In this document: positions 11,161 to 23,605 of the stretch, one piece after another
How positions within the stretch are numbered: position 1 is the first letter of the stretch
How the letters are laid out: each line of letters starts with the position of its first letter
From: a bacterium
Lineage (GTDB): Bacteria; Zhuqueibacterota; Zhuqueibacteria; Residuimicrobiales; Krinioviventaceae
Direction of reading: 5' to 3'
NCBI GenBank assembly: GCA_963674595.2
Contig: CAXXFV010000023.1
Span: 96,001-160,000, forward strand
DNA: 64,000 bases
Position numbers and translations under genes: made by a program
Notes under the pieces: generated by a model
Databases searched by the model: none
Told to the model about the DNA's origin: nothing
Seen by the model: only the letters and a program-made list of their open reading frames with translations

Positions 11161-13227
11161 TTACTTTTTTTTATCCCAGAATATTGTCAGAAAAACAGGT
11201 TCATGATAGGGAACAGACTTTGTCAGTTGTAACTGAAATGTATCCTTTACTTTTATAATGGAAAAATTTTTACAGGGTTCCCAGTCTCCGGTAGCGGTCA
11301 GCAGTTCTGTTTTTTCAATTGTACGTTTGTCCGAGAACTTAAATTCCACCTTTTCCCAGGGGTCCAGGGACAAATTGAATAATCCCAAAAGTGTTTTATC
11401 ACCCAGGTCTTTGCGGAGTCCCAGCGGATAAACGCCGCCACGCACCAGTAAAGGTACATCGTCCCGACCCAGCCAGCGCACCATGTGCTGTAACTGTTCC
11501 CGGCGGAATGTGTGGTTATAGGCAACGCCGTAAGCTGTTGCCAAATCAAACGCCTGTACGATAATGCGTCCGCCAAGTTGGTTCTCATAAGCATAGGCAC
11601 AAACGTGGTGCCGTTTGGCATCCGGATCGACAATCCGGCTGATAATTTCGGCTTCGTCAACAGGTTCCATAATGCTAAAGTCCGGACGGCCGGTTAAATC
11701 CGGCATGGTGAGGGTCAGAAACTTTTTCTCTGCACCACCAAATTTTGGATTAAAAAATTCTTCGGCTGAAAAGGCTCCCAAATCGTTTAGAAAAACCGGA
11801 GAATTAATTGATTTGAGCCCGATCTCCCCACCAAATCCACGATCAAAAAGGATTTTAGCGGCGACTGCGTCCAGCCATATACCTTTGGATAAAAATCCAT
11901 GAATCTCCGAATCGTTAAAGGCGCGCAATTGCTGCCCGGAACTTGCCAGAATGTGAGAATTTTCATAGATTGTAGGTATACCGTGACTTTCCAGCATTTG
12001 CATCAAACACTCACCGTCTCCGGCGAGTTCTAAAAAATTGGTAGAGCTTTTCAGTTTTTTTTCATAACTGCTTTTTTCATGCACCAATATTTTAACACCG
12101 CGATAGGTGCCTGATTGTTGAGCGCGTCCCGCCAGGGCGTGAAAGAACGGTTTTTTCTCTTTCAGCAATTTCCCAAACATGGATTCACGTTCCATAGGCG
12201 TTCCGGCATGATCAAAAAGATTCAAGGTTACGCCGTCTGCTCCAAAGGCAAAGGAAATGGCCATTTGCAGAAATGTGAACGATGTGCTTTTGGAATATTG
12301 GGTAAAAGGAACGTTTTCAACTTCTGTCTGCTGAATGGTATCTGCGGGCAGCATGTGGCGTGTTAACTTGATAGAATCGTGAGAATAATATAAACCACGC
12401 AAAGTCGCTTCGTGGTAATGGCCCAGCGGCGGACGACTGTAAAGAGGTTTGCCGTCGGCAACAGCGTGCGCAAAATCGTGCCATCGCCGCCCTTCCATAG
12501 CATGACCTCGTACGTCGCTGGACATGAGTCCCAGCCGGGTGTTCGGAGAGGTTTTGTGGACCACTTTGGCTAAAAAATCGACCAATTCAATCATCACGTC
12601 GCCCTGCATGTCCAGAAATTCACTACGCCAGGGATGCGGATCGCCCGGTTTGAGTATCGCTTCAACCAGTGTCTCACGGGTGACTTTTTCGCCGATTCGG
12701 TCGGAAAATCGCTCAATATGCAGGTGACAAAAACAACTATAGCGCACCGGACGGTGAAAAAAAGTCCGTAAATCATCTTCCATCCAAATGACATGCGGTT
12801 TGGTTTCTGCGTACATGGTCCAGATTTTGGCAACATGCTCGCGCCATGCCAAAGACATGGGACAGGCACAGGCCATGCATTCCGTGCCGTCGTGTCCCAC
12901 CATTGTTCGAAGAGCGGGGATATAGGTTCGCGAGTCCCGTCCACGGTCGTTGTGTCCCACGGTAATCCAGGGATTGATTGAAAACACAATCCCCAGTTTG
13001 TCCATTTCCGCCTTTATTTCGAATAAATGCGGTTGATATTTTCTGATCCAGTCCAGCGGCGGCTGACCATGCGAAAACTCTTCGGTATCAACTTTAACAA
13101 TCAGTTCGTCAACACCATATTGCGGCAGATATTCAATTAATTCTTTTAAATTTTCTTCAAAACTCCAGGGCGGCAGTGTACGACGCAACGCATACCAGGC
13201 ATTTGTTTGTTTCTGTGTTAAAGGCAT
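11161..13227 (-). CDS. Hypothetical protein, probable glycoside-hydrolase-like TIM barrel
   Basis: 688-aa ORF, CACP and WMEDD motifs, CFCHLH, C-terminal region resembling a trimerisation domain. Confidence 0.5.
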   Translation of the reverse strand: MPLTQKQTNAWYALRRTLPPWSFEENLKELIEYLPQYGVDELIVKVDTEEFSHGQPPLDWIRKYQPHLFEIKAEMDKLGIVFSINPWITVGHNDRGRDSRTYIPALRTMVGHDGTECMACACPMSLAWREHVAKIWTMYAETKPHVIWMEDDLRTFFHRPVRYSCFCHLHIERFSDRIGEKVTRETLVEAILKPGDPHPWRSEFLDMQGDVMIELVDFLAKVVHKTSPNTRLGLMSSDVRGHAMEGRRWHDFAHAVADGKPLYSRPPLGHYHEATLRGLYYSHDSIKLTRHMLPADTIQQTEVENVPFTQYSKSTSFTFLQMAISFAFGADGVTLNLFDHAGTPMERESMFGKLLKEKKPFFHALAGRAQQSGTYRGVKILVHEKSSYEKKLKSSTNFLELAGDGECLMQMLESHGIPTIYENSHILASSGQQLRAFNDSEIHGFLSKGIWLDAVAAKILFDRGFGGEIGLKSINSPVFLNDLGAFSAEEFFNPKFGGAEKKFLTLTMPDLTGRPDFSIMEPVDEAEIISRIVDPDAKRHHVCAYAYENQLGGRIIVQAFDLATAYGVAYNHTFRREQLQHMVRWLGRDDVPLLVRGGVYPLGLRKDLGDKTLLGLFNLSLDPWEKVEFKFSDKRTIEKTELLTATGDWEPCKNFSIIKVKDTFQLQLTKSVPYHEPVFLTIFWDKKK

Positions 13228-13448
13228 TGGGACAAACTCCGGTTGAAAATAATCGTTGGGAAATATAGATAAAAAATAAATTATAACATTTTAGCTAAAA
13301 TTACTGATTGAATGTTAAAAAGACAATGTTTTATTACCTTTGGTTGCCTCAGATTTGATAATCATGATTTTTTGTAACTTTTAGACTCATAACTTCTATC
13401 CAATATACATTAATTTATTTTTGTAGTTGAAATAAAGCGATAAAAATA

Positions 13449-13476
13449 TTGACTTTTGTAAAAAGTTAATTATATT
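13449..13476 (+). promoter_or_regulatory. sigma70-like promoter just outside the left inverted repeat
   Basis: TTGACT-N16-TATATT. Confidence 0.55.
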
Positions 13477-13497
13477 GGTAATATAGGTTGGCATTAA

Positions 13498-13518
13498 TTA
13501 AAGGATAACTATTTATTA
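13498..13518 (+). repeat. 21-bp inverted repeat, left copy
   Basis: TTAAAGGATAACTATTTATTA; exact reverse complement at 17584-17604. Confidence 0.9.
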
Positions 13519-13523
13519 ACGTA

Positions 13524-14543
13524 TTGATGTACATCAAGCAAATTAAAAACATTGTATTAGTATCTGATTATGTTCAAACACAAAGTGAACAATTAGAATC
13601 AGCTGCAAAGAAACAAGGTGTTATCTTTAGGCAAGCTAGTGCATCTAGTACCGATACATTGCAGAAAGCAATAATACAACGTTTCTCAAACAAAATACTT
13701 CTTTATACCAATGTTGATGAGTTTAAATTGAATATCAATGCACATATTGATGATCTCATTTTTCCATACTGGTTTGGTAAACATTCAAGAAATTCACAAT
13801 CGTTAATACCAGCACTATGTGAATTGTATAATATTAAATATATTGGAGGAGATGCATATACCAGAATAGTTTGTAATGATAAAATACTATCAAAAGAAAT
13901 AGCTGTTCAGGCTGGTTTTAAAACACCAAATTATATTATTATTAGATCATTGAACGAAATTAACTCATCATTTGATGTAATCTCATATCCATCTGTAATT
14001 AAACCTATTTATGAAGGCGCTTCTATCGGAATTACTCAAAGAAACAAAGTTAATAATAAAGATGAAGCTTATGAAATTGCTAAGCATTTGTTTATTGAAT
14101 TTGAACAACCAATCCTAATTGAAGATTTTATACCTGGCAAGGAAGTAAATATTTGTCTTCTTGGATATGGTAAAAATGTTAAACTAATGAATTCGACTGA
14201 ATGGTATTTAAAAGAGGATGAGGAATTCTTTATAAACAATTTAAATACCACACAAGAAAAGAAAAGTGGAAAATATATACATTGTGTCCGAAATGTTTCA
14301 GATAAAATACCAGAATATGTTTTTAACTCTAGCAAACAAATCTTTTCATGGCTTGATAAAGTTGAAATTCTAAGAATTGATGGAAAACTTTTTAATAACG
14401 ATTTTTATCTTATTGAGCTCACATCTATGCCACACTTAGGGATGTCTGAGTACACTCTTTCTCTTATGATGAATAATTACAGCTATGAGGATATAATCGA
14501 AAAAATTATCAAATATGCCGTCTATGGTTATTCAGTCGAATAA
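13524..14543 (+). CDS. ATP-grasp protein, D-Ala-D-Ala-ligase-like
   Basis: NDKILSK, YPSVIKPIYEGASIGI, EDFIPGKEVNI, RIDG, IELTSMPH. Confidence 0.8.
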   Translation: MMYIKQIKNIVLVSDYVQTQSEQLESAAKKQGVIFRQASASSTDTLQKAIIQRFSNKILLYTNVDEFKLNINAHIDDLIFPYWFGKHSRNSQSLIPALCELYNIKYIGGDAYTRIVCNDKILSKEIAVQAGFKTPNYIIIRSLNEINSSFDVISYPSVIKPIYEGASIGITQRNKVNNKDEAYEIAKHLFIEFEQPILIEDFIPGKEVNICLLGYGKNVKLMNSTEWYLKEDEEFFINNLNTTQEKKSGKYIHCVRNVSDKIPEYVFNSSKQIFSWLDKVEILRIDGKLFNNDFYLIELTSMPHLGMSEYTLSLMMNNYSYEDIIEKIIKYAVYGYSVE

Positions 14544-14558
14544 TATAAGAATATTATT

Positions 14559-15230
14559 ATGGAATTTCCTGATGTACTAGACAAAAATCCCTATCCAGGA
14601 AAACTAATTGCACTATGCGGAGTTGATGGGTCAGGTAAAACAACACAATTAGTTTCGATTAGTAATTTTCTCAAAAAAAATGGGTATGATGTTGCTACTA
14701 CTATGCAACATACTGATAGCATGAAAGAATATCCTATAATGAAAAATTTTAATCTTTACCCAAAAATTCGTTCAGAGATTGATTTTAGAGCAATAATATG
14801 CTTATCAATTGGGGATAGATTACAACATTTACATTCAATAATAAAACCTGAACTTAAATCTGGAAAGATCGTTATAACTGATAGATATATCTATTCTTTA
14901 TTAGTATTTATCCTCTCTTTTAATTATCCATTACAGAATTGGATATTGGAGCTATTTTCATTTTTTATTGCGCCAGATATTACCTTTTTATTCACGGCAA
15001 GAATAGATGTTATTTCAAGAAGAATTTTGGAGAGAAATAACGAAGAGGATAGAGATATTAATTATATTTCACTAAAAGTTGAACAAGATTGGTTTTACAA
15101 AATTTCTCAAAATTACAAATTTGAGATTATTGAAACCTCAGAGATGAATAAAGATGATGTTTTCAAGTTTCTTAAACAAAAGCTTATAAATGTTATTCAA
15201 ATAAATGAAGGAAATCGAATGTCCAATTAA
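14559..15230 (+). CDS. Thymidylate-kinase-like P-loop kinase
   Basis: GKLIALCGVDGSGKTT, VITDRY, PDITFLF. Confidence 0.85.
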   Translation: MEFPDVLDKNPYPGKLIALCGVDGSGKTTQLVSISNFLKKNGYDVATTMQHTDSMKEYPIMKNFNLYPKIRSEIDFRAIICLSIGDRLQHLHSIIKPELKSGKIVITDRYIYSLLVFILSFNYPLQNWILELFSFFIAPDITFLFTARIDVISRRILERNNEEDRDINYISLKVEQDWFYKISQNYKFEIIETSEMNKDDVFKFLKQKLINVIQINEGNRMSN

Positions 15231-17584
15231 CAAGGTTTATAGTCTTAAACGATTGAACTTGAGAATCCTTTTTATAGCTAGTATTTCCCAAAAATCTTTC
15301 ATTCCAACAAGCTTGACGTAATATTGATGGAATTTTGGTACCTTTTTTATAATACAAATGAGACAAAGCTTTGTTTTTTATTGATTTGTAAAATAAATAA
15401 GCATTGTAATAAAAAATTTTCACTAACTCATAATCTAATATTTCTCGATTTTTTTCGGTTTCCATCTCCTCAAGAATAAATTCAAACGATGTTTGCTTTT
15501 GGTTTTCAGCATATAGTACTAACAAATTATTTAAGACAATAAAGCGATCTCTAAAGTTTGATATGTTGTTTAGAACTCCCAATAGCTTTTCTTCAATAGA
15601 ATTGAATTCATAATTTCCTTTTCGAATAAAAAGTACAGCAAAATTGTTTTCTACTAGAGAGTATTTATAATAATATTTTGTAGATATTTTTTTTGCTTTA
15701 TTAAGTTCATCTTCAGCTTTTTCAAATACACAATCTTTTAAATAAAATCTAGCTAAAGAAATATGGGTAGACATAACTTGTAGTTCATTTTTACTCTCGC
15801 TAAAACCCTTTAATGATAATTTTAAAAACTTTAATTTATACTTTCTTTCCTTGTCATCATACATGAGAAAATCAGCACATTTATAAAAATAAGGTTCAAT
15901 GTCTGTCCTTTCAAATGTTTTCAAATTTCTATGTTTGTTCCATAACAGCTTTGCTTCTTCAATCATGTTATTGGCTCTGTATGAAGATATCAATGATATA
16001 ATTGCCCCCCTTTTTAGTTTAGCATTATGTGAACTACTAACTATATTCATGCCTATTCGTTTTGCATCATCAATTTTACCATCTAACCCCATGGATGTTA
16101 AATTAATTAAAAGTAATAGAGCATCTTTTTTATACTTATCAGTAATTCCCTTAGCTTTTTTATAATTATAAGTTCTATAATAAATCAAAGGCTAGTTTTT
16201 TATCGAAAGCAGGGATTATTTTACTATCACTTTTTAATAATCGTTCTTTAAGATCTTCTAGATTTTATTATGCATCTTTCAATAGATAATAGTCTGGGGA
16301 TAAGCTTAATAGCTCCATTTAGAATATAATGAAACTCACTTTGATTGGTCACTTTAGACGAGAAAAAAATTAACTGGGTAAGGCAACGGTATTTTGGCAT
16401 ATATATATCATAATCATTGTTAAATAAGGATCGGTAGATATTAAGCCAGATATTAATAGAGATAATACGATATTTTTCTAATGCAGTCTCTTTCAATAAA
16501 AACGAAATTATACTGTCATGCTTAATTTTAAAACTGTCATCCTCTTTATAAATTAAATCTTTTTCTTTTAGTATTCTTTCGACAAGTTCATTCGTATTTA
16601 TAACAGGAGTAGTTGTTGTGAAGTGCCTATGCTTTATAAATAAATCAAGGAGTTCTTCTGAAACATAACCATCATGTAATGCAATTCCGCACATTAACAG
16701 TTGTAATATTTTATTTAAAGAAAAAATTCTAATAGAATCAATTTCATCATATTTAATTCTTTTTTCTTGTTTTATTTTAATATTTTGGAGCATTTGTAAT
16801 TTATGTAGATTTCCTGATGATTCCTCGTAGGATCCTTTTACCAGATTCAGATATTCCTTTGGTGAATTTTGAAATGCGGTTATTATATCAACTAATGGCA
16901 ACTTTTAAGGTTACATTTATGTAAATATATATTATTGCTTATAAAATAACTGCTTAGAGCGTCTATTTCAATACTTACTTCCTCGCTTTTAGTGTACTCC
17001 AATATTAAATAAATCTTGTTTTTAAGTAGAAAACGATAAAAACAATTTAAGGAGTACGAATCAATAATTTGAGAATTATCAACTAACACATAAAAGTATT
17101 GTTCATTAAGAGCATACTCAATATACTTGGTCGCTTCATAAACTACTGAATCACTTGAATAGAATAACGTTTGATTTAATATTTTAGATTCATAGCCTAT
17201 ATCTTTTGTAAGTTGTTCTGATATTTTTTTTAACCTAGTAATATCTGCTACTGCTGCTGATATATACTTTTTAATATCAACCTTCTTGTACTTAATAAAC
17301 TCAACGAATGAAAATAAATTTGAGTCATTTGCATTGGAATAGTCATTAATAGCTATAGCAAGTTGTCTCACAAATAATCCTTCAACATTTGCATTATTTT
17401 TATGTCTTGCAATTTTGACATGTAATTTTGCCAAATTACATTCATCTAATGCTTTCTCAATCAATGAAGATTTACCAATGCCAGATTCTGCTGTTATTAA
17501 TAGTACTCGAGAAGCTCCTTTATAATTTTTAAAATCTTTTATTAAGAAGGCTTTTTCATATATCCTGTTTATAAAAGGAGTCAT
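15193..17584 (-). CDS. P-loop ATPase with C-terminal TPR-like helical repeats (probably one ~800-aa gene split by frameshifts)
   Basis: ORFs 16892-17584 (AESGIGKS Walker A, YVLVDN Walker B), 16248-16901 and 15193-16188 (TPR-like) can be joined by single-base shifts, e.g. an A-run near 16903. Confidence 0.65.
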
Positions 17585-17604
17585 AATAAATAGTTATCCT
17601 TTAA
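17584..17604 (-). repeat. 21-bp inverted repeat, right copy (last base is the A of the ATPase ATG)
   Basis: TAATAAATAGTTATCCTTTAA. Confidence 0.9.
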
Positions 17605-17748
17605 AGCAAATTAATTCATCGTCCAAAACAAGACAAAATTTTGCAATAAAAGGATTTTAAATATCACAGTTATCAAAAAGCAGGATGTGGTGATTTTGTT
17701 GCCTGATTAAGTAATCAAAATTGTTGAAAAATGGATACTTCCCCTGTG

Positions 17749-18684
17749 TCAAGCGGTTAACACAATTTTTTCGCGTGGGTGTTTTTGGGCGAGAATTTGT
17801 TTTTGTTTTTCATTGGTAACATGCGTGTAAATTTGTGTAGTGTGAATACTGCTATGGCCCAACAGATGTTGGATGTATCTCAAATCCACGCCTGCTTCCA
17901 AAAGTTGTGTTGCAAAGCTGTGCCTGAACATGTGTGGTGTTATATTTTTTGTGGACTTTATTTCCGAAACATACTTTTTTATCATAAATCGAACGGACTG
18001 TTCGGACAGGCGGTTGTAATTTCGATTCAGAAAAAAATGATTTGATCTTCTGCTTTCATTATGAAATAACCTGGAATATTCTTTTAGTACGTGAAGGACC
18101 TCTTTGTGGCAAATTTGACTCATTCTTTCCTTTCGGCCTTTGCCCTTAATTTTTAAATCACCTGTACTTAAATGGATATCTAAAGTCTGTAAATTACACA
18201 ACTCAGATACCCGCATCCCTGTTGCATACAATACTTCGAGAACACAAATATCCCGGACAATATTTTGATATGCCTTTCCAGGTTTACACATGTGCTTTTT
18301 CAAGTAAACATGTTTTAATAATTCTTCTATTTCCTTCATAGTAAAAGTTTTGGGTAATGCTTTTTCTTCCTGAATTTTAATCCGTATTTTTCGAAAGGGG
18401 TTAGTCTCGATTATATCTTCATACTCATAATAATTGAGCATAGCTTTGAGGGATGCTATTTTCCTTTTAACTGTTTTGGGTTTATATTGAGACATTATAT
18501 CTTGAAGAAATTGTTTGAGAATGACCCTATCTATTTTTTGAATGGATTCTGGAAAATTTTTCTCCGACAAAAAGGTTTGAAATTGGTACAAATCAATTCG
18601 ATATGCTTTGATAGACTTGGGGTCCAGATTTTTTTCTAATCGACAATATGTCAAAAATTTTTCAATGCAGGTTTCCAGTCGCAT
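17749..18684 (-). CDS. Tyrosine recombinase/integrase (XerC/D-like)
   Basis: [40 protein letters not shown] catalytic motifs. Confidence 0.95.
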
Positions 18685-19436
18685 AACTTACTTTCTCCAT
18701 TCAACAGAATATCGTGGGGATAATAGTCTAATAGTTATTTGTTTTCACAAAGTTATTCAATAATTGGTTGATTTTACAAAAATTATAATAATATATCCTC
18801 TCATCTCTTCGTAGCGCACATTTGGATGGTGCTTTTTCATTGAGTAAAAACCAAATCCAAAATTTTAATCTCCCCAACCGTATAAAAAATACTTGTAACT
18901 TACTATTTGAGTTTAGCATCAAGTCAGAGCTTTTATTGAATTACTCCAATCAATAAAAGATCGTGAGAAACCAGGATTAATTAAATATTATGATGAAAAA
19001 GCAGACAATCTTAGTGGGACTACAAGTGGAATAGGCATGAACTAACTTGTTGAGGAACGATATATCAAAGGGTTATTGTGTCCGATTTTACTATTGTGAT
19101 GAAAAAGATAATATATTACTTTTTAAATTTATGCTTAAATTTTTTTGGTTATATCGAACAAAAAAAATCATTATAACATTATATTGAAAAACAAAAACAC
19201 CTCATATCAATATACACTGATCGTGGTTAAGAATAACAATCATCCGTCAGTTTTTGTTTGCCTATAAATATTCCTTCAATATCAAGTTTTATGACATTTT
19301 AAAACAAAACTTTCACGCTGCTGTGCCACCAATATTCAGGTTTAAAAACAATCCTTTCTTATCAGGATTATAATATATGTTTTCTAATTTTACAAGTAAA
19401 AACTCTGGTATATAAATTATTTTTGATGGCGTTTTT

Positions 19437-21554
19437 TTACTGAATTTTTAACATGGCACATCCACGTTCTAACGGAACATCTAATGCTACGACACCATTT
19501 TTTTCTGTCAATTCTATGGGTTGCCATTCTGTCTTGCCCGGATGGATGATCATTGCGTGAAAAGAATCATTACCGGACTGCTTTTGCAAATGGCGTAACT
19601 CAATTCGGCACGTTTCAGACTTTTCTCCAAAAGTAACCGGTACCACATAACCATCTGCTATGGAAAAGAGATTGGCTTTGGCTGAATTTTCCGCCACAGT
19701 GACGGCATGAGGTTCAAGCACCCACTGCTTTCCACGCAGGGCATCCAACATGGGGCCGTAATCAAAATAAATTTTATCCACATTATCCGAAGGTACGATT
19801 GTGTGATCATTGCCCGGCAGTGGGGCTGTTAAATAAGCACCCATATACAGGTGGCGTTGAAAATAGGCGTCCGGGGTTTGGTCGAGTTCCGGGACCATAA
19901 TTGTCCAGGCCATAATCGGTTTACGCAACGCCAGTAAAGCGCACAGGTTCATACTGTGTCCCATTTGCCCAAACTCATCATAAATACCGTCAATATATTC
20001 CAATAAATCCAATCGACGATAATGCGGATTACAGTAGATCACTTTATCATTTTCATGCATTACCTTACCGATTTTCCGGATAACGTTATACCAGGAGATG
20101 ACCAAAGAACGCGCCGGTTTATTATTGACCCAACTCAGGCCGTCATCAAATTTGGGATTATAAAATTTTAGCCAATCCATGCGGTCAATACAAATACCGG
20201 AACTTGAAGGGAATTTTTCCACATGAAGTTTTGCCTGGTCTGCTAGAAATTGCTGATAAACCGGATCACCCGGGTCCATGGCCACACAGCCTTTCCAGGA
20301 TGGGATGGGTTTATCGTCACCTTCGCGCACAAGTATGGCATCGTTTAACACATTGTAAATATAATCATTGGCGTCTTTCCACAAGTCCTGATCGTTTATC
20401 GCTTTTCGAGGCGGCGGCGGGTATACAATGTCCCTGCCGAATTCTGTTACATTAAAATAACAAAGGACATAAAATCCCATGTTGGTAAAGAAATTTATAT
20501 CTTTTCTCATATTGTTTATCGAGTTGGGTTTTGATTTCATATCAATCCACTCTATTTTGTCATTCTTTACCGGCGGTACAAACATACCCATATAGGGAAA
20601 GTCGAAACTGGCTTTCCAGTTTACTTTGAAGGACATCCGTTTCAAACGTTCTGCATCGAAATCCACGGCATGACTCGAATATGCGCCGCAGCCGGCCATT
20701 TCCTGAACATGAGGATTTGGCGGGTTAAAAAACTGGGGATACTTGTCCACCAGCCACCCCAGGCCACAGCGCCAATCCGCTTCATGTCGGACCAGATCCA
20801 TCGAGAATGTAACAGGCGTTTCTGCTGAAATCCGGTGACAGGTGCGGGAAATTGTCATTTGTCCGGTAGATGTCACATCAAGTTCCATGTCAAAAATGAG
20901 GTCTTGAGGGGACATAACCAGACTGATACCGTTATCCTTTTCAGAATCAAACACAGAAACCAAAGGATGGCAAAACGTTTGAGGAAGGGTGTGTTTACGG
21001 CCTCCGTAAAAAAGGGATGCGTCTGTAAAAGCAATCGGCATTAAGGGGTCCGTCCACCATATTCCGTCGTCAACATCCCCCAGTCGTTTGCCTTCAGCAG
21101 CGTCAGGACGATTGTCTCCCCAGGCTGTCCACCATGAAAGTCCAGCCGTGTTTTGCCATTCCAGTTGGGTTGTGATTGCGGTTGTCCAGGGTGCATCTTT
21201 ACCAATGATTTCAAATTCCCAATGCAGACCGTCTTTTGTCGGTGTAAACCGTTCTATCAATACACATTGTTTGCCATTTTTTTTATGACGGAGGTTTTTA
21301 CGGAATTCCTTTGTGCCGTTATTTAATACCCGGCTTTCGATTTTATCTGTTATAATACAATCGGCAAGTTTGGTTTGTGCCGTTAATCCGGTTATTACGT
21401 TCACATTCGATGATTCATGAACAATCCCCCTGGCATCAACTGAGAATAAATTTGGACCGGCGAAATCGTTAGTTTGGCAGCAAATAAAGGTAAGAAAAAA
21501 AAGGACGATTAAAAATATTTTATCAAGTAAAGGGTTCAATTTTTTCAAGTACAT
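19437..21554 (-). CDS. Exported hypothetical protein, possible glycoside hydrolase
   Basis: 705-aa ORF, signal/lipobox-like FICC, aromatic-rich, GICIDRMD motif. Confidence 0.5.
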   Translation of the reverse strand: MYLKKLNPLLDKIFLIVLFFLTFICCQTNDFAGPNLFSVDARGIVHESSNVNVITGLTAQTKLADCIITDKIESRVLNNGTKEFRKNLRHKKNGKQCVLIERFTPTKDGLHWEFEIIGKDAPWTTAITTQLEWQNTAGLSWWTAWGDNRPDAAEGKRLGDVDDGIWWTDPLMPIAFTDASLFYGGRKHTLPQTFCHPLVSVFDSEKDNGISLVMSPQDLIFDMELDVTSTGQMTISRTCHRISAETPVTFSMDLVRHEADWRCGLGWLVDKYPQFFNPPNPHVQEMAGCGAYSSHAVDFDAERLKRMSFKVNWKASFDFPYMGMFVPPVKNDKIEWIDMKSKPNSINNMRKDINFFTNMGFYVLCYFNVTEFGRDIVYPPPPRKAINDQDLWKDANDYIYNVLNDAILVREGDDKPIPSWKGCVAMDPGDPVYQQFLADQAKLHVEKFPSSSGICIDRMDWLKFYNPKFDDGLSWVNNKPARSLVISWYNVIRKIGKVMHENDKVIYCNPHYRRLDLLEYIDGIYDEFGQMGHSMNLCALLALRKPIMAWTIMVPELDQTPDAYFQRHLYMGAYLTAPLPGNDHTIVPSDNVDKIYFDYGPMLDALRGKQWVLEPHAVTVAENSAKANLFSIADGYVVPVTFGEKSETCRIELRHLQKQSGNDSFHAMIIHPGKTEWQPIELTEKNGVVALDVPLERGCAMLKIQ

Positions 21555-21649: not shown

Positions 21650-23605
21650 TTATTTGGTAGTGAAATTGATTTTTTGAATGTTTTTGGCAATCTCTATCCG
21701 GTTGATAATAGATTCTATAAATATCTCGTACAACCTGTCCTTTAATATAAAGTCTTCAACACCCAAATCAATATTGGGATTATCATTCACTTCAACAACA
21801 TAAACCTTGTCATCAACCATTTTTAAATCAACACCATACAGGCCATCTCCAATTAATAATGATGCTTTTTGGGCTGTCTGCAAAACGTCTCGTGGGACCT
21901 TGTCAATGCTTAATGTTTCCCAATCGCCGGATTTGTCTATTTCATCACTTTTCCAGTTATATATCTGCCAGTGATTTTTTGACATGTAATATTTACAGGC
22001 AAAAAGAGGATTATTATCCAGCATCCCGATTCTCCAGTCAAACTCGGAATAAAGAAATTCCTGACAAATAATCATATCAGACTTTTTGAATAAATGTTTA
22101 ATTGCCGAAACCGCTTCCTCAATATTTTCAGCTTTGGTAACCCCCAGGGAAAAGGCACTATCAGGTTGTTTTAGCACCAGGGGAAAGTTCATCTGTTCTA
22201 AAATTTTTTTATTAAACAGATTTTTTGTGAAAACGGTTGTTTTTGGCGTTAATATTTTATGTTTTTTAAAAATTTCATTCTGATATATTTTATTAGAACA
22301 TTTGAGAATGGACCAGGGATCATCAATAACAACAAGGCCTTCGGCATAGGCCATTTTTGAAATTTCATAGGTGTGGTCATTAACGCTGGTGGTTTCTCTT
22401 ATAAAAAGTGCATCGAATTCGTTTATTTTATCTCTGTCTGCTTTGGTGATAAACTCTGCATAGACACCTTTTTTATTGGCTGCATTTACAAATTTCTGCA
22501 AAGCGTCCGGACAGGATGGAGGAGTATCTTCCTGTGGATTTACAAGTATGGCCAGATCGTATTTAAAGTTTGTTAATTTGGAGATATTGAATCTCTTTTT
22601 ATTGAAATATTTTCTGGCAAACTCATACACGATATCAAAATCGTCTTTAGGTATTTTGTTTAATGTTAAAAAGGAAATATCTTTGATGAGCCATTTATCG
22701 TGCTTGACAAAATCAATTTTAAAAAGTGGCGCTTCGAAAAGTTGGTAAAGTTTTAATGATAAAGCCTTATAAGCTTTTGCATTTGTTTGTCCAAAATAGA
22801 TATTCAAAGAAAAAGAATTACCATTTTCTTTATTTAAGGATTTATTTATCAGTTCATCAATATCATAGGCCGCTGAATGAATGACTTTGAGAATTTTATA
22901 ATCTCTGATTGTAGATGTGCTTGGGATGACACGCTGTCCCCGGGCCGAGGCGAGTAATGAAACATAATAACCATAACTTTGATACCTGTATGAACTGCAC
23001 AGGTTAAATATTCTAAAATCTGAACTATTTTGGTATATAGGATTATTTATGTATTCTTTGACAGTGATTATTGTAGCATTGATTTCCGGCAAATTCCATT
23101 TATAAGGTTGATTAATAACAATGACGTTTCTTGTTTTTTTGGATATTGATATTGCATTGGTTTTATATTCCATTTTCAATGCATTATCACCATTGCTATA
23201 ATAATCCGACAAAATATTCTGTTCGGCAAATCCTCTAGTTTTATACCAATCAACAAGTTTTGTGTTATTGGCATTTACCTCGAGCATTACTTTTTCAATT
23301 TGGTTTCTGTTTGCCAGTTCAAAAACATGCTTAAGCAATACATCCCCAATACCCATATTTTGATGTGCCGGAAGGACGGCAATTGAATAAATTCGGATGG
23401 TTTTTTTATATTTAAATAAAACAACGGCACCAACACCTTCCTTATGTTGCCCGGTTTCGGCAATCAGAATTTCCTGAAATTTGCTATTGATACCATGTTT
23501 TATATTTTGTTTTGAATTTCTTTGAAAAGGGGGGAATGATTCATTTTCCAGTTTCAGCAAGAAATTCAGGTCATTAACCTCAGCTTTCCGAATACTAATA
23601 TTCAT
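21650..23605 (-). CDS. GNAT acetyltransferase + RLAN + RimK-type ATP-grasp fusion
   Basis: RimI-like N-terminus (YSIAV, HQNMGIG), NLCSSYRYQSYGYYVSLLASARG, PLVLKQPDSAFSLGV, YGVDLK, EVNDNPNID. Confidence 0.85.
   Translation of the reverse strand: MNISIRKAEVNDLNFLLKLENESFPPFQRNSKQNIKHGINSKFQEILIAETGQHKEGVGAVVLFKYKKTIRIYSIAVLPAHQNMGIGDVLLKHVFELANRNQIEKVMLEVNANNTKLVDWYKTRGFAEQNILSDYYSNGDNALKMEYKTNAISISKKTRNVIVINQPYKWNLPEINATIITVKEYINNPIYQNSSDFRIFNLCSSYRYQSYGYYVSLLASARGQRVIPSTSTIRDYKILKVIHSAAYDIDELINKSLNKENGNSFSLNIYFGQTNAKAYKALSLKLYQLFEAPLFKIDFVKHDKWLIKDISFLTLNKIPKDDFDIVYEFARKYFNKKRFNISKLTNFKYDLAILVNPQEDTPPSCPDALQKFVNAANKKGVYAEFITKADRDKINEFDALFIRETTSVNDHTYEISKMAYAEGLVVIDDPWSILKCSNKIYQNEIFKKHKILTPKTTVFTKNLFNKKILEQMNFPLVLKQPDSAFSLGVTKAENIEEAVSAIKHLFKKSDMIICQEFLYSEFDWRIGMLDNNPLFACKYYMSKNHWQIYNWKSDEIDKSGDWETLSIDKVPRDVLQTAQKASLLIGDGLYGVDLKMVDDKVYVVEVNDNPNIDLGVEDFILKDRLYEIFIESIINRIEIAKNIQKINFTTK

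Follow-up and report, generated by a model that had tools for sequence, protein, structure and literature searches.

The window analysed here, a stretch of 64,000 nucleotides from contig CAXXFV010000023.1 of a bacterium of the Zhuqueibacterota, contains between positions 13498 and 17604 (4,107 bp) what is probably a gene cassette that is inverted by an adjacent Xer-like tyrosine recombinase at two dif-like sites, whereby the gene unit that is driven would be swapped for the other. The units are predicted to be an ATP-grasp ligase gene followed by a dTMP-kinase-like gene on one arm, and a gene for a STAND-like nucleoside triphosphatase (NTPase) on the other. An invertible cassette of two convergent units beside a tyrosine recombinase had been proposed in the initial annotation of this DNA. 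The proposal is supported by the junctions found in the sample of the window, by inverted repeats at all 26 loci with a complete gene pair and by two direct flips, while the shared operator or the integration scars that had been named as alternatives leave the flipped copies unexplained. Both marks of an invertible switch, that is, inverted repeats with a recombinase gene next to them and the occurrence of the enclosed segment in both orientations, were found.

Inverted repeat and orientation of the cassette

The sequence TTAAAGGATAACTATTTATTA (21 nt) is present at 13498-13518 on the forward strand and at 17584-17604 on the reverse strand, with no mismatch between the copies. Two or more matches to it occurred in none of 100 shuffles. 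In the 6.6-Mb genome to which the window belongs, with up to three mismatches allowed, the single extra match is an unrelated site with three mismatches, and the pair is unique in the genome. No exact inverted repeat of the window whose arms are separated by 1.5-7 kb is longer; the runner-up is 15 nt, and the longest repeat in 60 block-shuffles measured 13-18 nt. The perfect 21-bp inverted repeat initially reported at 13498 and 17584 is thus exact, unique and longer than any obtained by shuffling. The left site (13498-13518, forward strand) comprises an outer arm TTAAAG with a Shine-Dalgarno (SD)-like AAGGA, the core GATAA, the 7-nt spacer CTATTTA and the inner arm TTAA; the right site (17584-17604, reverse strand) is its inverted copy, and its inner arm, TTAT-G, gives the start codon of the NTPase gene. 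Both sites end 0-9 nt 5' of the starts of the respective open reading frames (ORFs), which agrees with the earlier statement that each copy lies directly 5' of one of the convergent units and carries an SD-like motif.

The orientation of the segment was followed in two sequencing runs (X1 and X2) of one sample, using Logan contigs with a depth of about 5-6 over the stretch. In X1, a 9.9-kb contig ends at 13518, and a contig of 4,106 nt, which starts at the repeat, spans 13498-17604. The junctions of the reference are represented by 39-nt unitigs at 13489-13527 (depth 5) and 17575-17613 (depth 4). Two further 39-nt unitigs, each of depth 2, are hybrids that fit the stretch over 30 nt only, namely at 17575-17604 (inner 9 nt plus repeat) and at 17584-17613 (repeat plus outer 9 nt of the right junction); altogether, exactly two records of X1 fit two places of the stretch. 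In X2, which is otherwise fragmentary, one contig stops at 17613 and a second one begins at 17584. With 31-mers, a repeat of 21 nt causes branching only if both combinations of flanks exist, and four junction unitigs are therefore as expected for an inversion polymorphism. We infer that both orientations are present in the sample of the window, with the flipped form making up roughly one third of the population by depth. The mixed orientation at both junctions that followed from the initial proposal is supported at the level of contigs, by the breaks at the repeat and by the two hybrid 39-mers.

The ATP-grasp family is small, with 13 clusters besides that of the window in a word-indexed search (E values up to 1e-36, 33-39% identity). 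Profile scans, based on an alignment of six members, located 16 genome loci and 29 metagenome loci, giving 46 loci together with the window. In 30 of these, an NTPase gene is convergent with the ATP-grasp gene, and in 26 of the 30 the pair is bracketed at both 5' ends by a perfect inverted repeat of 16-42 nt, or of 80 nt in one case. The other four (L015, L021, L028 and L032) are on short contigs, with the NTPase gene cut by the contig end; none of the 26 loci with a complete convergent pair, including the window, lacks the repeat. The cassette mostly measures 3.4-3.6 kb and reaches 4.1-4.9 kb where an extra gene is included, which is the kinase gene in the window, an NT5C-like gene in L016 and a tetratricopeptide (TPR) gene in L034. 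In 21 of 23 pairs, the convergent ORFs share 30-65 nt at their 3' ends. A site forms the exact end of eight contigs, and of L018 and L037 among them it forms both ends, a pattern typical of segments that exist in either orientation. Labels of the named loci are Desulfobacterota, Bacteroidota, Bacillota, Anaeroplasma and Pseudomonadota; with Campylobacterota, added by two Aliarcobacter plasmids, the loci span at least five phyla. The module was absent from the viral contigs and phage records searched.

Direct flips were seen in two pairs of near-identical elements. The contigs L025 and L026, from two metagenomes, are 99.94% identical over 7,017 bp and have the cassette joined to opposite flanks. 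In L026 the ATP-grasp end of the cassette adjoins the recombinase flank, in L025 the flank away from the recombinase (the far flank), and the switch point is the 17-nt site. The 80-nt "repeat" mentioned above is that of L025 and arises because the far flank appears at both contig ends. In the Aliarcobacter cryaerophilus plasmids pACRY43158 and pM830MA, flanks with 99.9% identity enclose a 3,458-bp cassette (99.9%) that is inverted between the two, with the breakpoints at the site; the recombinase, DUF4172 and AAA-ATPase proteins of both plasmids are identical by accession. Homologous loci with inverted repeats and flipped cargo, to which the initial annotation had pointed as a check, do therefore exist, with repeats in 26 of 26 cases and two flipped element pairs.

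For a comparison of the sites, 50 of them from 25 loci were aligned, each read towards the cassette. The consensus is (t)GAAtAAAG-GATAA-CTnnnnA-TTAT-(C/G), in which ATAA and TTA are found in 50 of 50 sites, the G in front of ATAA and the A at +11 in 48 and the final T in 49. In the sites, GATAA and TTATC form a short dyad with an asymmetric spacer of 7 nt in between, which is the form of a tyrosine-recombinase core site; the centre, ATAA-spacer-TTAT, resembles the centre of dif. The sequence of the spacer varies among loci and also between the two cassettes of locus L039, and such locus-specific spacers would prevent cross-reaction between site pairs. The SD-like AAGGA is located in the outer arm, and the sites of the relatives lie at or across ORF starts. 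In 21 of the 50 sites the base following TTAT is G, resulting in an ATG that spans the inner arm, which in the window is the start of the NTPase gene. The palindromic pattern GATAA-N7-TTATC alone is uninformative, with 36 strand matches (18 sites) in the genome versus 12 matches for a backward control pattern. The 9-mer ATAACTATT has four matches in the window versus 1.13 expected. One of these, at 18730-18738, is indeed situated upstream of the recombinase gene, as initially noted, but its suggested role as an autoregulatory site is unsupported; this third copy is at chance level, because two of the four matches are the repeat itself.

The repeat contains an SD-like motif and is placed at both start codons, and the evidence from the sample of the window is contig-based and of low depth. 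Such features would also be compatible with the absence of any programmed inversion, in which case the repeat would be a shared operator or a translation leader, and the two orientations would be rare rearrangements or assembly artefacts. This explanation is regarded as very improbable, since the recombinase-type core is invariant across phyla while the spacer is variable, 19 of the 26 loci have a dedicated recombinase beside the cassette, a clean flip at the core is the sole difference within each of two near-identical element pairs, and eight contigs end exactly at sites of only 21-42 nt. Besides, repeats of 17-34 nt are short for RecA-dependent recombination.

Mobility has to be weighed in a similar way. 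The cassette and the recombinase gene of the window are contained in an island of low GC content (26-32% over 13-19 kb versus about 39% in most of the window). This island was not found by DNA search in 40 related genomes, except for weak matches of 52-108 nt in four of them, three of which lie over the recombinase gene, and the module occurs in many phyla and also on plasmids. The repeats could accordingly be thought of as mobile-element ends or attachment scars and the recombinase as an integrase, serving mobility instead of switching. However, where a recombinase gene is found beside the cassette within the DNA retrieved, it is located outside the repeats without exception (19 of 19 loci, including the window, and on both plasmids); inverted sites give inversion and not excision, and the flanks are fixed while the cassette flips. 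There is hardly any likelihood left for mobile-element ends, and programmed inversion by the adjacent recombinase is retained as the preferred reading.

Additional sites with the same type of core were encountered at three loci. In L039 (3542-5637), a second cassette with the same core and a different spacer lies directly between the first one and the recombinase gene; its cargo is an unknown 337-aa protein convergent with a FabH-like protein of 349 aa. This locus points to arrays of independently flipping cassettes. Upstream of the ATP-grasp homologue in L043 (131-3167), a same-core cassette encodes a pentapeptide-repeat protein of 602 aa and, in convergent orientation, an ATP-grasp_3 protein of 415 aa, and its long imperfect inverted flanks extend to the contig end. 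In L035, a third core-type site with another spacer, GATAA-CTTAACA-TTATC, lies about 65 nt outside the far site and could belong to the border of an adjacent cassette.

Recombinase, cargo genes and genomic surroundings

The recombinase gene of the window (17749-18684, reverse strand) encodes a protein of 311 amino acids with the domains PF00589 (1e-41) and PF02899 (3e-12). It is co-directional with the NTPase gene, and between its stop codon and the right site there is a spacer of 144 bp (17605-17748, reverse strand). The catalytic set is complete (R158, K182, H251, R254, H277 and Y286), and 17 of 17 aligned recombinases are identical in the corresponding columns. With these residues, the Phage_integrase domain and an N-terminal SAM-like domain, the protein has the defining features of the tyrosine recombinase superfamily, and the intact tyrosine recombinase that had been recognized just outside the right copy (18684..17749, reverse strand) was correctly identified. 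This adjacent recombinase would be the invertase, and it may act alone, as is suggested by the likeness of both site arms. An assignment as XerC or XerD equivalog was rejected, with 255.6 versus 329.6 bits for TIGR02225 (XerD) and 250.8 versus 335.15 bits for TIGR02224 (XerC). Likewise, a serine invertase of the Gin/Cin/Hin type, as in Mu G and P1 C, was dismissed, the only recombinase being of the tyrosine type. Across the loci, the recombinase gene adjoins either end of the cassette. Beside the ATP-grasp gene it is co-directional in seven loci and divergent in two; beside the NTPase gene it is co-directional in four loci, and in one more with a second cassette in between, and divergent in five. 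In co-directional loci the recombinase stop is 5-135 nt away from the adjacent gene. The far flanks are not conserved between loci. In run X3, from a second sample of the same study, short contigs at 17579-18266 extend over the right site and the spacer into parts of the recombinase gene, with next to none of the cassette. They may come from a relative in which the same recombinase accompanies other cargo, or may just reflect low coverage (0.04 of words present).

The ATP-grasp ligase gene (13524-14543, forward strand) starts with TTG at 13524 or ATG at 13527 and encodes 338-339 amino acids assigned to the D-Ala-D-Ala-ligase family. Dala_Dala_lig_C (3e-17), which is the C-terminal domain of Ddl, is the only Ddl domain of Pfam that was detected; the score for TIGR01205 is 98.1 bits with a cut-off of 245.65, and the best solved relatives are Ddl/VanA (1e-31). 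Judged from these matches, the enzyme belongs to the Ddl family only in the wide sense. The gene for the dTMP-kinase-like P-loop kinase (14559-15230, forward strand; 223 aa; PF02223 with 7e-20, TIGR00041 with 79.9 bits versus 83.25) is an accessory gene on the ATP-grasp arm and is absent from most relatives. At its 3' end it shares 38 nt with the NTPase gene.

The NTPase gene occupies 15193-17584 on the reverse strand, with an ATG (17584-17582) that overlaps the right site. In the window it is seen as three ORFs of 230, 217 and 331 amino acids. Compared with the window, the short-read contigs of both runs show three 1-nt indels, each within a short homopolymer run (16188/16189, 16267 and 16902). 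Because these indels coincide with the ORF breaks and the corrected sequence is one ORF of 796 amino acids, the split is an assembly artefact. Of the "ATPase-TPR" unit initially described on the reverse strand, the P-loop/TPR gene is therefore upheld, but as one gene of 796 aa and not as several ORFs. Further apparent frameshifts in the assembly of the window may be similar artefacts.

An N-terminal P-loop is combined with C-terminal TPR-like repeats in this protein, and relatives of about 770-850 aa align over the full length. The Walker A motif, G-x-G-K, is invariant in 21 of 21 sequences. AAA_16 scores 25.7 bits in a piece of the NTPase of the window, which is below the cut-off of 32.6, and 32.8 bits in L009; the TPR region matches the TPR of kinesin light chain (1e-7). 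Look-alikes are STAND NTPases with AAA_16 plus TPR_12, some of which carry GerE or BTAD DNA-binding domains that are lacking in the present family. The arrangement of P-loop NTPase module, helical arm and TPR sensor that characterizes STAND proteins is recognizable. The NTPase family comprises 416 representatives at 50% identity (E values up to 1e-30). In both runs, the summed contig depth is 2-6 times higher over 16452-16698 and 17193-17439 of the window, and there are loose ends at 16566, 16569 and 17200. Short parts of the NTPase gene recur in other contigs from the sample, and these could stem from related elements in other organisms or from repeats. On plasmid pM830MA (L055, 1937-4407) the NTPase is annotated as two coding sequences versus one in pACRY43158 at 99.9% DNA identity; either one of the two records is frameshifted or it contains a sequencing error.

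Concerning the surroundings of the island, the flanking genes of 688 and 705 codons were considered as paralogues, which was rejected with a best BLASTP score of 28.9 bits. In a search for an empty site, only relatives with 25-27% identity to the 688-aa flank were found, in 4 of the 40 related genomes. A direct repeat of 30 nt with 77% identity (13271-13300 and 19161-19190) flanks the island (cassette, recombinase gene and 480 bp); it may be an insertion scar or a product of chance in AT-rich DNA. An Rfam scan of 12500-20000 gave nothing near threshold, and no tRNA gene was found by a scan of the window. At a distance of 3 kb from the island, a gene at 21650-23605 (reverse strand) encodes a 651-aa fusion of a GNAT acetyltransferase, RLAN and a RimK-like ATP-grasp domain. 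This second, unrelated ATP-grasp enzyme adjoins another low-GC stretch at 22-27 kb (28-34% GC).

Predicted effect of inversion and possible role of the cargo

The recombinase would recombine the two inverted sites in the translation-start regions of the convergent, 3'-overlapping units. The position of the motifs suggests a crossover region that follows the SD-like motif and precedes the start codon by a few bases; promoter and SD-like sequence would therefore be supplied by the fixed flanks, and start codon and coding sequence by the cassette. A flip would exchange the unit that is fused to the recombinase-side flank, where read-through would proceed via the 144-bp spacer, and the unit that is fused to the far flank. 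As assembled, the NTPase gene is placed behind the recombinase gene and the ligase/kinase unit faces the far flank, with the promoter-like site TTGACT-16-TATATT (13449-13476, forward strand, 10 of 12 matches) as a possible driver. This is the site that had been reported as a good sigma-70 promoter; it does exist, but sites of this kind are at chance level in the region. The far flanks being unconserved, the recombinase side would therefore be the sole expression port that travels with the module. A terminator scan revealed no site between the convergent genes of the cassette of the window. From the 3' overlap without a terminator it would follow that the better-driven unit is expressed, with antisense transcription through the other one, and cells would exist in one of two states, "NTPase" or "ligase/kinase".

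On a broader scale, the loci may be members of a widespread class of binary gene-swap switches, a notion to which we attach only tentative belief. The cell would make the ligase (here together with the kinase) or the STAND NTPase, never both, and the same type of recombinase and site would serve other gene pairs in arrays, thus constituting a portable either/or device for conflict or defence-type genes. It is also conceivable, if rather unlikely, that the cassette inverts for another purpose. Both flanks would then carry promoters, the NTPase as sensor and the ligase as effector would cooperate, and a flip would shift their ratio or the co-regulation with the recombinase. Such cooperation would be in line with the conservation of the SD-like AAGGA in both outer arms, with the good -10-like boxes noticed on inspection in several far flanks, and with the strict maintenance of the pair in 30 of 46 ATP-grasp loci and in all complete cassettes; moreover, STAND NTPases are normally paired with an effector, and an effector domain is missing from this NTPase. 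On the other hand, convergent, 3'-overlapping genes without a terminator are poorly suited for co-expression, and with unconserved far flanks no dedicated second promoter moves with the module.

Returning to the inversion that swaps the driven unit, several points weigh against it. That inversion alters which unit is expressed is something we infer from sequence features, and both genes may be made in both states, given that both flanks have the SD-like outer arm. Promoter-like sites are not enriched in the region, with 40 observed versus 43.1 +/- 6.6 in shuffles. The left site of the window, with TTAA, is the sole exception among the 50 sites to the conserved final T, and it is devoid of the ATG of the family, the ATP-grasp ORF beginning 6-9 nt further on in the same frame. 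Two further Xer paralogues with 36% and 33% identity, encoded in the genome, are other candidates for the enzyme. In the sample of the window, the hybrid unitigs have a depth of only 2 and derive from contigs rather than from raw reads, and they are interpreted as inverted junctions by virtue of their length, their placement and the count of records fitting two places. The contigs of X1 and X2 probably originate from the source sample of the window and would thus not be independent of its assembly. Finally, differences in orientation could be due to co-existing strains instead of frequent switching.

The cargo might be a conflict or defence-type module, for which there are some weak leads. The neighbours were scanned at five loci, and defence-like ones were found at two of these: in L017 (Ruminococcus sp. 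Marseille-P6503, 7228-9925) the cassette adjoins genes with SIR2_2 and HerA (DUF87) domains, and in L038 it adjoins an nSTAND1 NTPase. SIR2-HerA is a known defence pair. The STAND NTPase cargo, the horizontal spread, the carriage on plasmids and a match of the kinase to the PADLOC candidate model PDC-M51B (2e-9) lean in the same direction. For the ATP-grasp ligase, the NTPase and the recombinase there was no match in PADLOC-DB 2.0, neither in the window nor in the relatives, and membership in one of the known anti-phage defence systems of this database was rejected, the kinase alone matching a candidate model. A role of the Ddl-like enzyme in the cell wall is doubtful, because the cassette also occurs on a contig labelled Anaeroplasma, which is a wall-less group; this label belongs to a 4-kb contig, the binning of which may be wrong. 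Our guess from the extra genes on the ligase arm (dTMP-kinase-like and NT5C-like) is that they point to nucleotides and not to peptidoglycan. The ATP-grasp homologues without an NTPase (L010, L011 and L019) are found in unrelated contexts that give no clue to a pathway.

If expression does alternate, the repertoire of phase variation would be extended by a compact natural two-state gene selector. There would also be a handle on the function of the conserved ATP-grasp/STAND pair, and the small recombinase with its pair of 16-nt sites would possibly be useful as a tool. Inversion of the cassette also accounts for contig breaks and apparent misassemblies at such loci in metagenomes.

Comparison with known inversion systems

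A published description of this cassette family was not found in the literature search, with the limitation that such loci could be listed in supplementary tables of inverton surveys. ATP-grasp is not mentioned in the main text of Milman et al. 2023 (PMC9881135), the supplements of which might include some, and the main text of the Arcobacter plasmid paper (PMC9535334) reports neither inversion nor recombinase. The cassette switch looks widespread and is apparently undescribed.

With respect to the mechanism, the vpma locus of Mycoplasma agalactiae (Xer1) and the vsp locus of M. bovis (Mbr) are the nearest described systems. In these (PMC2268961), a Xer-like recombinase is encoded beside the locus, the sites are located in 5' untranslated regions, and inversion joins a silent ORF to a promoter outside. 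The window likewise has an adjacent Xer-like recombinase and a site in the 5' leader of either unit. The cargo of vpma/vsp consists of several genes for homologous surface lipoproteins that share one unique promoter, whereas in the cassette two unrelated, cytoplasmic-type enzyme units form a compact convergent pair; lipoprotein cargo was thus rejected in favour of an ATP-grasp ligase, a kinase and a P-loop NTPase. Furthermore, the cassette site is only 16-34 nt long and doubles as ribosome-binding and start region, unlike in vpma/vsp. As to the single outside promoter of those loci, the promoter scan of the window is at chance level, the recombinase flank can supply read-through and the far flanks are unconserved.

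In architecture, the cassette is similar to the G segment of phage Mu and the C segment of P1. These are invertible segments of 3-4 kb with two convergent alternative gene sets, in which the invertase gene lies outside one repeat and the expression signals lie outside the other. Their invertases, Gin and Cin, are serine recombinases that work with an enhancer and Fis, and the cargo are phage-borne tail-fibre variants with a constant N-terminal part. The cassette differs in its tyrosine recombinase and its unrelated genes, and carriage by phages or viruses was not found in the viral contigs and phage records searched.

Tyrosine recombinases are also used in the hsdS invertons, where coding DNA between inverted repeats is inverted (by PsrA in pneumococci), giving rise to subpopulations (PMC7672463, PMC7096588). 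In hsdS, the repeats are inside homologous genes and domains are shuffled; in the cassette, they precede the start codons and whole unrelated genes would be swapped. The fimS switch of E. coli (FimB/FimE) and the flg and cwpV switches of C. difficile (RecV) undergo tyrosine-recombinase inversion between short inverted repeats with phase variation as the result. In promoter invertons of this kind, the promoter or leader flips and the genes are fixed, whereas in the cassette the genes flip and the expression signals are fixed. The segment of a promoter inverton amounts to a few hundred bp.

In comparison with the resolution of chromosome dimers by Xer at dif, the recombinase is similar (251-256 bits on the XerC/XerD models) but remains below the equivalog cut-offs. 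A further difference lies in the sites, which have a 7-nt spacer, flank genes as an inverted pair and possess like arms suggestive of a single recombinase; in addition, the genome contains two extra Xer paralogues. Summarizing, the known inversion switches act either by turning a promoter around or by shuffling homologous variants, for instance of surface antigens, tail fibres or restriction specificity subunits. In relation to vpma/vsp, Mu G and P1 C, the cassette differs in the swapping of unrelated genes, in the merging of the recombination site with the translation-start region and in the spread across phyla.

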